The notes beneath the pieces are model-generated. The model was given only the letters and a program-made list of their open reading frames with translations, did no database searches and was not told where the DNA came from. From NCBI GenBank assembly GCA_029260855.1, contig JAJDCK010000017.1, positions 1 to 55,899 on the forward strand: a stretch of 55,899 nucleotides of DNA. The letters are read 5' to 3'. The DNA comes from Candidatus Saccharimonadota bacterium. GTDB taxonomy: Bacteria > Patescibacteriota > Saccharimonadia > Saccharimonadales > OFTM59. Shown here in pieces: positions 7,582 through 13,758 of this stretch. The position numbers and the translations under genes were made by a program. Every line of letters starts with the position of its first letter. The first letter of the stretch is position 1.

Positions 7582-7890
7582 TCACACGTCTAGGAATACG
7601 ATGACTTTGTCTTTTTTGACGTGCATGATACCGCGGTTAATTGGAATTTTTTCATCATTTTTGCCGGTGCGAACTATAATATCGCAGGCACTTAGCAGTG
7701 TCATGAAGTTATGATGGTGTGGCAAAATATCAAATGCTCCCGTTTCGTTTACCGCCGATATACTCTGTGCATCACCGTCGTAGTAGGTTTTGAACGGTGC
7801 GTATATTTTGACATGCATACGCTTGCCGTCATAAGCAGTCGCACCTGGTTCAATAGTACTCTTTGTCTTTTGGATTAACCCTTCTGGCAT
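7582..7890 (-). CDS. atpC: F1 ATPase epsilon-like subunit, N-terminal domain only
   Basis: VKIYAP...GAFDILPHHHNFMTLL motif, follows beta; no C-terminal helical hairpin. Confidence 0.85.
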   Translation of the reverse strand: MPEGLIQKTKSTIEPGATAYDGKRMHVKIYAPFKTYYDGDAQSISAVNETGAFDILPHHHNFMTLLSACDIIVRTGKNDEKIPINRGIMHVKKDKVIVFLDV

Positions 7891-9197
7891 CAGGCAATAA
7901 TCTCCTCAATGCTTTGCAAAGTCTGTTCACGTGTGAAGAAATCGCCAGGCACACCATTGTGCTTAGTCATAACGTTCATGTTCTGCGTGAAATTTGTAAT
8001 GAGTTTCTTGGCTTTAGCATAGTCCGCTCTGTCTGCTGGCGAAAGCTCGTTCTCGCCGATAATGGCAATAATGTTTTTGAGTGATTCGTGCTTTTGCAGC
8101 AGAGCTAGGGCCTGAACGCTTAGCACATAGTGTCGATCGCCCACAATGTCTGGCGTCAATAATGAGGATGTTGTTTTGCTCAAGTCAACCGCTGGACGAA
8201 TGCCCTGCTCGGCCACCTTCCTAGACAGTACTATCGTTGAGTCTAGCTCGTGCTGAATCATCTGTACCGCCGGGTCAGACAGGTCGTCAGCTGGTACATA
8301 AATAGTCTGGACTGATGTAATTGAGCCGTTGGCATTTGAGCTTAAGCGGTCCTGTAGTGTTTTCACGTCCGAATAAATTGTAGATCCGTACCCGCCCTCG
8401 TTTGGTACCTGGTCTAAAATGGTGGCCAACTCGTTTCTGGCCTGTACATAGCGGTACATGTTGTCAGCAAAAAACAATATATCTCTGCCCTGTTCGTCGC
8501 GGAAATATTCTGCCGAGGCTACAGCGGACACGCCCACCAGTGAGCGCTGCACAGGGTTTTCATTCATCTGCCCGAAGAACATACAGGTGTTTTTAAGCAA
8601 GCCATTCTCGCGCAAGGTATCCCATAGTTCATGTCCTTCGCGGATACGCTCACCGATGCCCGCGAAAAACGATAGGCCGCTGCCACTTTTAGCGATATTA
8701 TTAATGAGCTCCATTGTAAGCACGGTCTTACCCACACCCGCACCACCAATAATTCCGATTTTACGACCCTTAACAAACGGGGTGAAGAAATCAATAACTT
8801 TTATCCCGGTTTCCAGGATTTCTGATTTTGCAGTTTTGAATTCGGTTGAACGCGGGGGCAGCTTAAAAACATCTTTGTATTTTATATTTTCACCGGATAT
8901 TGCCTCTAGACCATCCAACGGCCCGCCCACAGCATCAAGGATCCGTCCAATAGTTATGTCTCCCACCGGTATCTCAACGCCTTTCCCGCTTCGATTGATA
9001 CGCATTCCTTTAAGGATCCTACGGTCCGACCGTATGTTGAGACAAACAGCAATACCGCCCGAATCAATATGATCAACTAGCAGCTTGGTATTGTGCCCAT
9101 TGTCAGCTATGACAATCTCGCCGATACCTGGAGCCTCCGAATCGAATTGGACTCTTACAACAAGGTCTTTTATTGACGCTACACTACCGGGGTTCAT
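7890..9197 (-). CDS. atpD: F1 ATPase beta subunit, divergent
   Basis: [40 protein letters not shown]. Confidence 0.95.
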
Positions 9198-10060
9198 GTC
9201 ACGGCTCCTGACCTAATTTTTTTCATACCGTTTACAATCTCCTTGAGACGCTCGTCCTTCAAGCTACGCTTAGCCCGATTATACAAAAGATGCAGGTCTG
9301 ATTTAGCCTCATCGGCTCGTTGATGAGAGGCAGACATTGCGCGAAACCGCGAAGCATACTGAGCTAGTTTGGAGTCAAGAATCAATTGGCTAACAGCAAT
9401 GTGGAGCATTGACCGCTCAAGGTGGTCAACAACATCATAGGTGCTTGGCTCAAAGATATAGTTTGCCTCTGTGATAACGTCGTCAGGTGATTCGCTGCGC
9501 TGTCCTTTAGCCTGCACTGCAGCTGATAGCTCAATCCTCCTAACATCCTGTACCATAAGTGAGATGTATTCCTGGTAGAACACGGAAGTTGATCTATACA
9601 TCTGTACATAACGGATTATTGGTGTCACGTTTATATTCTGGTCTTTTACGGGTAGTTTGAAGTATTTTTGGTACGAAACACCCCTCTGGGCAAGCTGTAC
9701 AGCACCGTGATGACCTATGACAATTATGTCGTTTTTCTCTTTGTTGTAGGACTTCAACATGGTATGGATAAGCTTCTGATCGATATCTCCACTAAAACCT
9801 CCTTCAGCGGTGATAATAATATAAAGCTCTTTATCAATAATTTCGTCCTCCTCAACTTGACTACGCCCGAATCGGAATGACGTATCTACTCGGAGCTGCG
9901 AATATATACCCCACAGTTCATCAAAAAACTGAGTCGCTTTTAAAACTTGGTTTTTTATCTGAGCGATCCGCATACTTGCAATGCCCTCAAACACACTAGT
10001 CAGTTCAACCAAGGTTCCCATGGCGCTTTCTTCTCGTTCAATCTCGTTTGGACTTTTCAT
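9194..10060 (-). CDS. atpG: F1 ATPase gamma subunit, divergent
   Basis: [13 protein letters not shown] (cf. SDRGLCG), [17 protein letters not shown]...LKEIVNG; located between alpha and beta. Confidence 0.92.
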
Positions 10061-12271: not shown

Positions 12272-12901
12272 CTACACCCCGCCTGACATATCCGCAATAA
12301 TCGCATCTTTGTTAGCCTCAAGGCTACTCAAAATGAATTCAAGTTGATCATTCAGGTCAATTTGGTCCCCGATCGCTGCTAGCACATAGTGATTGATCAC
12401 ATCGGCCATATTGTCCTCAAAACGTTTAACCAGTAATGTTAAGCTTTTTTCTGCTTCAAGCTTTATCTGCTGATTCATTACTTGGCGCTGCTGCTCAATA
12501 GCTTCTTGGGTCTTAGTTATAGAGTCAATCGCGAGCTGTTTAGCGTCGGTTATTGATTCTTCATACTTAGCAAATTCTTCCTGAAGTGTGCGAGTAATTT
12601 CTGCTTTCATGTATTCATTAAGCTGGGAGGTGGTCAGCCTGAGATCTTGCTGCAAAAACATCGCGTTTTCGCCAATAATTTTCTCAAAATGCAGTCGCCC
12701 ACGGTTTCTAAGCTCTTCACGAAACTCGTTATTGAAGATGTGTTCAACATCTTCTTCGGCGCGCTCGGTCATTACGTCGTGAGGGTTTTTGTGTTTACCT
12801 TTTTTACGCGCTCCACTGTTTATACGGAAGCCGACCCACAAGAAAGCTAGCGTTGCCGATGCTAGACTTCCTAGTACTAATGCGAGTGCCCAACCATTCA
12901 C
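12272..12901 (-). CDS. atpF: Fo b-like peripheral stalk subunit
   Basis: N-terminal TM followed by long charged coiled coil; position before delta. Confidence 0.65.
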   Translation of the reverse strand: MNGWALALVLGSLASATLAFLWVGFRINSGARKKGKHKNPHDVMTERAEEDVEHIFNNEFREELRNRGRLHFEKIIGENAMFLQQDLRLTTSQLNEYMKAEITRTLQEEFAKYEESITDAKQLAIDSITKTQEAIEQQRQVMNQQIKLEAEKSLTLLVKRFEDNMADVINHYVLAAIGDQIDLNDQLEFILSSLEANKDAIIADMSGGV

Positions 12902-12924
12902 TTAAATGCCCACCTTGTAAATAT

Positions 12925-13758
12925 TTATAGCTTTAGTAGTAAATATACTCCAAAAATGCCACTTACAAAAATAGTTAAGCCCACAATCACTACTTGCAGC
13001 ATCCCTTGAATTATTGATTTCTTGCTAAGCGGGTTGCGCCCGACAGAAGTAATCCCCGCTTTTACGCCTCCAAAAAGCAAGCTGGCCGCAATCGCAGTAC
13101 TGACAAAAAATATAACAAGACCCATATAGATACGGGGAGGTTCAACCGGCTTCCCGGCTATATCTTCCGCAGCACGACCTAAGAAGTCCGGCAAACTAGC
13201 CGCTGATTTTTGTGTCGGGTTACGCGCTACTTGTATATCCACCCGCACGCGGCCCACATTAATCGTTCTATCCCCTACCTTTGTTGAGCTAACCACGCCA
13301 TTATGACCATCAAACAGCTCTAGAGCCCTGCCAGCTACGTAAGGCTGTTGGTCATCTACTCGCATACCAACTCCATCCAATGAAGAGGTTGTTATGTAAT
13401 CACCGGGGTTGATTATCCCGTTTTGGTCACTCACCAACACGTCATACTTGCCTACGGTAGCCACGAACACTTTTTGGTCTTCGGCCGATAGTGTTACCGG
13501 AGCGTCATTAGCGTCTACAACGACACCGTGTAATTTATCAGCATGCGTTGAACTGACAGCTTCTACCGTGCTTGTATCGGAATCCTTAATCCCGACCAGC
13601 ATGCCTCGCTGTAGGGCGCCCTCGGCGCTATTGTATCCTTGCGTTACCGCTTGCGCCGATAGCAAGCCTCTTGAACTCAGCACTATCAATAAAATCAGCA
13701 TGCAAAGCGCCAGGACGCGGTAAAGCGGAAAGAGGCGTAGAATTTTTTCTTTTATCAT
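12925..13758 (-). CDS. Extracytoplasmic-domain protein with C-terminal subunit-c-like hairpin lacking the acidic residue
   Basis: Signal peptide/TM, ~170 aa beta domain (NGIINPGDYITTSSLDGVGM), two C-terminal TM helices joined by ITSVGRNPLSKKSI; occupies the atpE position. Confidence 0.6.
   Translation of the reverse strand: MIKEKILRLFPLYRVLALCMLILLIVLSSRGLLSAQAVTQGYNSAEGALQRGMLVGIKDSDTSTVEAVSSTHADKLHGVVVDANDAPVTLSAEDQKVFVATVGKYDVLVSDQNGIINPGDYITTSSLDGVGMRVDDQQPYVAGRALELFDGHNGVVSSTKVGDRTINVGRVRVDIQVARNPTQKSAASLPDFLGRAAEDIAGKPVEPPRIYMGLVIFFVSTAIAASLLFGGVKAGITSVGRNPLSKKSIIQGMLQVVIVGLTIFVSGIFGVYLLLKL

Follow-up and report, generated by a model that had tools for sequence, protein, structure and literature searches.

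The DNA considered here, which we call the window, is a contig of 55,899 nucleotides from a Candidatus Saccharimonadota bacterium (GenBank assembly GCA_029260855.1, contig JAJDCK010000017.1), and the system in question is an F1-type ATPase operon at positions 7582-13758. An original prediction, made from the sequence alone, held that this operon lacks subunit a, carries a non-protonatable c-like subunit fused to an ectodomain, and hydrolyses ATP to rotate or remodel an extracellular structure rather than making ATP. We have followed up this prediction by a computational analysis of the operon, its neighbours and its relatives among the Patescibacteria.

The operon and the canonical synthase of the same genome

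Seven open reading frames (ORFs) occupy positions 7582-13758 of the minus strand in the ORF list, and their order (c-like, b, delta, alpha, gamma, beta, short epsilon) is the one originally described; a fibre gene converges on the last of them. Lengths are in amino acids (aa), and pLDDT is the predicted local distance difference test score of a structural model.

12925-13758, minus: c-like rotor subunit, 277 aa (model with pLDDT 91, fold matches, hairpin profile comparison)
12272-12901, minus: b-like peripheral stalk, 209 aa (position, N-terminal membrane helix and long coiled coil, weak profile match)
11565-12227, minus: delta-like subunit, 220 aa, C-terminal domain retained and N-terminal part diverged (hhalign)
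10057-11568, minus: F1 alpha-like subunit with arginine finger, 503 aa (PF00006)
9194-10060, minus: F1 gamma-like central shaft, full length, 288 aa (PF00231)
7890-9197, minus: F1 beta-like catalytic subunit, 435 aa (PF00006, Walker A and catalytic Glu)
7582-7890, minus: epsilon-like subunit, beta-sandwich alone, 102 aa (PF02823)
6430-7413, plus: associated short fibre, converging on epsilon, 327 aa (model, structural Z matches, neighbour clustering)

The aminotransferase gene upstream, labelled iscS-like from its sequence and from the original prediction, is separated from the c-like gene by 52 base pairs (bp), close to the 50 bp first given, which leaves no room for atpB. Overlaps of 1-4 bp join delta, alpha, gamma, beta and epsilon. 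None of 61 divergent-operon loci, which comprise the window and 60 others hand-picked for spread from about 100 divergent matches, yielded a subunit a or an ordinary c. All seven genes are under purifying selection: the proportion of nonsynonymous differences (pN) is 0.03-0.21 and that of synonymous differences (pS) 0.60-0.86, in one pairwise comparison with a relative in which silent sites are near saturation. A pN so far below pS in every gene rules out the pseudogene reading. Assembly artefact and chance are ruled out as well, since the same gene order recurs in dozens of genomes and is accompanied by this selective constraint. The close relatives of beta, among the best 80 of 557 matches and where they are named, are Saccharibacteria or Patescibacteria.

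The alpha/beta/gamma core is, judging by its sequence, catalytically intact. Pfam recognises alpha and beta as PF00006 (E 5e-66 and 6e-63), gamma as PF00231 over residues 6-280 (E 2e-30) and epsilon as PF02823 (E 3e-14). The catalytic motifs that the original prediction had recorded as conserved prove to be so in nearly all the homologues compared: Walker A and GERxRE are each present in 86/86 beta homologues, and the alpha arginine finger, SVTRVGG in the window, has its pattern in 83/86 alpha homologues. The DELSEED region of the window's beta has become ENELSPAD, and epsilon ends with its beta-sandwich, the median number of residues beyond it being 0 in 87 homologues (more than 25 in three), as against 58 in the canonical epsilon of the same genome. 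Loss of the epsilon C-terminal domain lifts the inhibition of hydrolysis. In one pairwise comparison no gene of the operon is better conserved than gamma (93% identity). The stalk subunits are more diverged: Pfam gives delta a weak OSCP match (E 0.074) and assigns no significant family to either b or the c-like protein. Against its canonical counterpart delta scores an hhalign probability of 96.5 (E 9e-10 over 72 columns). Because the corresponding match for b is weak (probability 48, E 2e-4), the identity of b rests mainly on its position, the expected one in 53/61 loci, and on an N-terminal membrane helix followed by a coiled coil.

The source genome (790 kb, 97.7% complete, 2.6% contamination; G000) also has the separate canonical operon whose search the original prediction had called for. 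It lies complete on another contig (C6) in the order a-c-b-delta-alpha-gamma-beta, with epsilon just beyond, and holds the only subunit a and the only ordinary c, with its Glu, in the genome. The alpha and beta of the window are about 40-44% identical to these canonical copies. The canonical operon has two oddities of its own: a 90-aa ORF interrupts it between gamma and beta (7643-7915 of locus L003), and its beta is separated from epsilon by the gene of a 461-aa surface protein (9303-10688).

The c-like subunit and the fibre genes

A model built from 46 sequences (pLDDT 91) gives the c-like protein an N-terminal hydrophobic helix, a beta-tulip ectodomain at about residues 37-179 and, after a short linker helix, the hairpin of a subunit c (207-276). 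The first helix ends in A-x-A and is a probable cleaved signal peptide, which would place the ectodomain outside and the hairpin loop inside, as in canonical subunit c, whose loop lies on the inner side. The hairpin superimposes on the c-ring 2x2v with a Z of 10.5 and a root-mean-square deviation (rmsd) of 1.3 over 69 residues, a helical hairpin alone being weak evidence; compared with canonical c by profile it reaches a probability of 67 with the Saccharimonadia profile, and of 96 (E 1e-9, whole canonical c) with the profile from other classes. Its loop, the part of subunit c that binds gamma and epsilon, reads GRNP in the window, and the RNP is kept in 97/97 homologues. The window's hairpin has no Glu or Asp and no glycine zipper; more generally, and as predicted for the window, an acid at +16 to +26 after RNP occurs in 0/97 c-like proteins and in 19/19 listed canonical Patescibacteria c subunits. 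Glycines of the inner helix average 2.0 per 27 residues, against 7 in one canonical example. A predicted complex of four c-like copies scored 0.01 against a mark of 0.42, which speaks neither for nor against a ring.

The ectodomain most resembles the C-terminal fragment of the phi29 protein gp12 (Z 12.3, rmsd 2.7, 113 aligned residues; also a Foldseek match), and the predicted mature N-terminus of the c-like protein coincides with the start of the solved gp12 fragment (residue 692). The ectodomain also resembles gp8.5, on which the phi29 head fibre is based (Z 8.6). The D-x-x-E motif of Peptidase_G2, in which Glu has a role in self-cleavage, is lost: the Glu column holds Gln in 44/54 Saccharimonadia rows, and the motif is absent from 22 rows of other classes. 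The c-like protein has no named family in Pfam, NCBIfam or Atlas, no phage protein matching its sequence was found, and a sequence search of the PDB returned only the subunit c of one entry (E 0.97), presumably that of Chloroflexus. The family is large, numbering 1503 proteins among 5018 candidates, nearly all of them annotated as hypothetical, with an automatic subunit-c label on 3 of 120 listed rows.

What the original prediction did not foresee is that the operon lies beside fibre genes, and that many of these fibres contain the chaperone domain too, complete with the cleavage motif. The short fibre, whose gene lies 168 bp from the convergent epsilon gene, is modelled (pLDDT 71.5) with a cytoplasmic N-terminal tail, a single membrane helix, a stalk in the form of a beta-helix and, at the C-terminus, a beta-sandwich. 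Its stalk resembles a Caldicellulosiruptor adhesin (Z 12.4, rmsd 2.0) and bactofilin (Z 11.9, rmsd 2.7); Foldseek found nothing for the fibre at E<=0.001, with weak tailspike and lectin rows. By clustering, members of its family or larger proteins adjoin the operon in 44/61 loci. A fibre test that asks for one early membrane helix and a long outside part rich in Gly, Thr, Ser and Asn is passed by neighbours of 41/61 operons, of 12/30 loci from other classes and of 9/12 stand-alone c-like genes, against a background of 13/553 non-adjacent genes of the same loci; nine further other-class loci have a neighbour that looks by eye like a giant fibre and fails the filter. Across the source genome 6 of 748 genes pass, three of them adjoining a c-like gene or the operon. 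The N-terminal part of a fibre that lies in the cytoplasm is 55 to more than 150 residues long. In other classes, giant fibres (L178, L181, L184, L185, L188, L190, L193, L197 and others) start on the cytoplasmic side with a helix-turn-helix of the MerR type, which is followed by the membrane helix; the inner end of a surface fibre here bears a DNA-binding fold.

The remaining c-like genes of the source genome, on contigs C14 and C7, directly precede fibres of 1534 and 1629 aa. Both contigs (L004 and L005) have the run ftsA, ftsZ, nrdR, ileS, rplU, c-like gene, giant fibre, by gene labels read from the sequence, with clearly diverged proteins; the bin probably holds two related organisms, and the two stand-alone c-like genes may therefore be one locus. 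Four genomes have an operon without either the c-like gene or the short fibre, and each has one c-like gene elsewhere; in three of them it directly precedes a fibre of 1267-1982 aa. The c-like ectodomain is homologous to a domain of the giant fibres, those of the organism itself included (hhalign probability 99.8, E 7e-28). This fibre domain occurs in many Patescibacteria, including genomes without the operon; it contains the motif D-x-A-E-x-Y and weakly matches gp12 (E 0.015) and Peptidase_G2 (6/18 members).

Three related secreted beta-rich proteins are encoded on the minus strand of the window at 2247-3302, 3346-4641 and 5559-6329, without a Pfam match in the two scanned; they may be pilin- or WxL-like. 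Their family lies beyond the short fibre in 20/61 loci (43 proteins) and is also found in L177.

Distribution and phylogeny

The divergent operon is real and widespread in the Patescibacteria, across which the original prediction had asked for a survey of synteny. Among 151 genomes of the class Saccharimonadia, 92 have a divergent beta (called at E<1e-105, a threshold of our own) and 93 a full-length c-like gene; both occur in 89, neither in 55, beta alone in three and the c-like gene alone in four. These samples consist of related and partly incomplete genomes. The c-like gene is present in 54/61 loci, two others being cut by contig ends and five lacking it. Outside the class it was found at full length in 41/375 genomes of a phylum sample, many families having none; this count includes G163 and leaves out one match to a fibre alone. 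In the loci compared from 30 of these genomes, whose source names include Roizmanbacteria and Levybacteria, alpha-gamma-beta stand beside the c-like gene in 26, and a divergent alpha/beta pair exists somewhere in 30/30. Subunit a has no match in 39/92 divergent-beta carriers of the Saccharimonadia, the other 53 having one, nor in 14/30 carriers of other classes, including the single-contig genomes G469, G333 and G377.

In several genomes (G039, G003, G061, G148, G031 and others) the divergent operon occurs twice; G039 and G003 keep b and delta in one copy and lack them in the other. In locus L038 (about 6950-7360) a decayed c-like remnant separates the gene of the aminotransferase from that of b in an otherwise intact operon; that genome has an intact c-like gene elsewhere, beside a fibre.

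In a tree of concatenated alpha and beta (59 of 80 rows, thinned by hand), the 36 divergent rows form one clade (Shimodaira-Hasegawa-like approximate likelihood ratio test, SH-aLRT, 100; stem 0.56), separate from the canonical Patescibacteria, from other bacteria and from one N-ATPase; one row of the tree labelled Saccharimonadia (L176) comes from outside the class. Approximately unbiased (AU) tests on 29 rows reject a grouping with the canonical Saccharimonadia enzymes (p 5e-66) and one with all canonical Patescibacteria rows (p 0.0024, a result limited by long branches). The clade persists in a beta-only tree that includes 61 library representatives (support 99), where it is separate from P0048 and P0060, which pass the mycoplasma type 2/3 cut-offs. 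The window's alpha and beta fall below the atpA and atpD cut-offs (385 against 484 and 405 against 463 bits), the canonical copies on C6 scoring 744 and 795, and below those of the N-ATPase models TIGR03305/03324 (373 for beta against 752, and 325 against 750 bits). The scores against the mycoplasma F1-like models are far below the cut-offs: MMOB1660 319 against 600, MMOB1670 346 against 850, MSC_0619 251 against 520 and MSC_0618 360 against 570 bits. These genes stand outside the ordinary Patescibacteria synthases, the N-type and the mycoplasma enzymes, and none of the findings that the original prediction listed against itself turned up: the window's are not the only atpAGD genes, atpB and atpE are not orphans elsewhere, and alpha and beta do not branch inside the canonical enzymes.

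Other divergent F1-beta clades lie outside the canonical, N-type and mycoplasma groups (P0013, P0022, P0046, P0054, P0095, P0104 and neighbours); when ten divergent betas were looked up by cluster, a single generic name came back. More repurposed F1 systems may exist.

Possible mechanisms and known systems

We put at roughly 45% the probability that this is a rotary ATPase specific to Patescibacteria, uncoupled from ions and serving surface fibres anchored in the membrane, and the parts of that proposal differ in strength. The complex is almost certainly ion-uncoupled, because with no subunit a and no acid on c established F-type chemistry excludes ion coupling. It very likely hydrolyses ATP, and probably turns the c-like ring, as would follow from the retention of the loop, gamma, epsilon and the usual stalk. 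That the fibres are its client is reasonably likely. Given such a client, assembly or remodelling would be slightly favoured over spinning, only because of the chaperone-like fold and the bulky cytoplasmic ends of the fibres; the assembly mode taken specifically is doubtful. Of the original prediction, therefore, the ion-uncoupled part is well supported; rotation or remodelling of an extracellular structure gains genomic support from the fibre linkage and the chaperone-like ectodomain, and we still infer it rather than observe it.

Under this proposal ATP hydrolysis would turn gamma-epsilon and a ring of c-like subunits, with b and delta holding the head in most lineages. The ring would bear on its outer face a crown of chaperone-like domains that could engage the emerging fibre chains and, at the membrane, wind them, assemble them into trimers or free them of the spent chaperone, and the stand-alone c-like paralogues beside other fibre genes would be exchangeable rotors for one F1. 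The fullest version, in which the rotor of an ATP synthase has become a rotating crown of phage-type fibre chaperones that winds, releases or spins the giant adhesin fibres used on the host, with interchangeable rotors for different fibres, and in which Listeria would offer a second case, independent or related, of the design without subunit a, is tentative and somewhat short of an even chance.

Several observations weigh against a fibre-servicing rotary ATPase. The genomes G095 and G104 (99-100% complete) have a divergent beta and no c-like match. The b and delta genes are missing from 6/61 loci and from L204, and since profiles trained on Saccharimonadia, weak for G377, found no b or delta match anywhere in G084, G024 and G377, these have no obvious stator. 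The ectodomain fits capsid cement and decoration proteins nearly as well as gp12 (Z 9-12, the best 11.9 and 10.9 against 12.3), so that a plain structural crown is equally consistent. The fibre test was written after fibres had been seen, and related genomes are not independent. No adjoining gene passes it in 20/61 operons, 18/30 other-class loci and 3/12 stand-alone c-like genes. A profile of the membrane-proximal part of the short fibre fails to reach the giant fibres (26/61, 0/30 and 1/12 loci), and for that reason no docking segment shared by short and giant fibres was found. Finally, many giant fibres carry a chaperone of their own (G2-type; S74-type in L204), and phage fibres are not known to need a motor to fold.

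Some of these points serve other explanations. The ring might instead grip the base of a finished fibre and spin or reel it along or into the host, as a motor for motility or drilling. A full rotor, with a full stator set in most loci, would suit such a task, as would the match of the ectodomain to gp8.5, whose fold also holds head fibres on phage capsids, and the few glycines of the inner helix, which are compatible with a wider ring; moreover, the type 2 ATPase of Mycoplasma mobile powers gliding (PMC12994834). However, bulky cytoplasmic fibre ends, some with the MerR-type fold, would presumably clash with gamma and epsilon in the centre of the ring, and stator-less versions occur, so that we consider this motor unlikely. 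A client other than the fibres (for instance the secreted beta-rich proteins nearby, a wall polymer of the host or a step in secretion), with the fibres as co-regulated neighbours in a surface island, could draw on the 240-430 aa secreted family found beyond the short fibre in a third of the loci (20/61), on the third of operons that have no adjoining fibre and on the lack of a common docking segment. It is decidedly unlikely in view of the nine of 12 stand-alone c-like genes directly before giant fibres and of the homology between ectodomain and fibre domain. An F1-like ATPase that does not rotate, with the c-like protein as its tether, and that unfolds or releases substrates much as type III export ATPases or the mycoplasma type 3 enzyme do, would accord with the dispensability of b and delta in some lineages, and the short epsilon and altered DELSEED region do suggest unregulated hydrolysis; yet the full-length and highly conserved gamma, the invariant RNP loop and the b and delta kept in most loci make it very improbable. 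That an ordinary ion pump or synthase borrows a and c from the canonical operon is largely refuted and has only the slightest chance, for although 53/92 carriers in the class do have subunit a, 39/92 and 14/30 have no match to it, some of them on a single contig, the operon's own c lacks the acid, and beta tracks the c-like gene (89/92) far better than subunit a (53/92).

If the fibre-servicing rotary ATPase is real, it would add a new family to the repurposed F1 motors, the first found to keep the c-ring and stalk while passing torque to an extracellular domain, and it would offer a testable handle both on how epibionts build or use their attachment fibres and on a rotary ATPase without ion coupling. 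It would also change the reading of Patescibacteria energetics: in 39/92 carriers of the class sample and 14/30 elsewhere, genes annotated as ATP synthase come without subunit a, so that counts of "ATP synthase" in Patescibacteria may include a machine unable to make ATP.

The operon is apparently undescribed. A literature search, with most subscription papers and supplements outside its reach, found no description of it. The ProAD survey (PMC11738941) restricts its count to loci that have both a and c, and reports 20 F/N enzymes with non-catalytic c; the portion of its text available to us describes no divergent Patescibacteria family, and its data tables may list such loci. Likewise, PMC10656485 and PMC10633639 (with its preprint) discuss the Patescibacteria ATP synthase with no second type in the parts seen, and the tables of the former may list loci.

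The closest analogue is the "ATP synthase-like operon" lmo0086-lmo0094 of Listeria monocytogenes (PMC13082608), to which no function is given in the available part of that paper. In the one Listeria record compared (L216, 2105-16248), the cluster shares with the window an acid-less c, the lack of subunit a, a b/delta-type gene, alpha, gamma, beta and a short epsilon, and it has two large proteins upstream (1959 and 769 aa) with N-terminal hydrophobic segments. It differs in its c, a plain hairpin of 80 aa that contains glycines and lacks an ectodomain, and in b and delta, which appear to be fused (348 aa). Listeria alpha and beta, a single long row, are a possible sister to the divergent clade, placed there with support of 95 and 90 in trees of alpha and beta; the beta-only tree with more rows does not resolve this relation, which may be long-branch attraction.

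With the canonical F1Fo enzyme (atpBEFHAGDC) the window's operon shares the gene order from c to epsilon, the catalytic motifs, the hairpin fold and loop of c and homologues of b and delta; it departs from it in lacking subunit a, in the fusion of an acid-less c to a signal peptide and ectodomain, and in an epsilon without its C-terminal domain. The N-ATPase is similarly a second F-type operon beside the main one, but, as the original prediction had noted, its order is different (beta-epsilon-X-X-a-c-b(delta)-alpha-gamma), and it has a subunit a and an acid-bearing c (PMC11738941). The phi29 gp12 auto-chaperone (Peptidase_G2) and the trimeric cement and decoration proteins of phages have the fold of the ectodomain, but the c-like protein joins this fold to the hairpin of a membrane rotor and is without the D-x-x-E motif; the gp12 domain is described as aiding trimer formation and being cleaved off (PMC13317679). 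Among repurposed F1 enzymes, the mycoplasma type 2 (G1-ATPase, gliding) and type 3 (F1-like X0, MIB-MIP) systems perform a surface task and coexist with a canonical synthase as an F1-like core genetically linked to its client, and one mycoplasma F1-like ATPase needs its Walker A lysine to serve the linked surface system; types 2 and 3 lack the c, b and delta present in the window, which in type 3 are replaced by proteins with 12 and two transmembrane helices and no known homologue (PMC12994834). The Patescibacteria operon would be a new variant among the repurposed F1-like ATPases, with a fair chance of being a new kind of fibre-handling motor.

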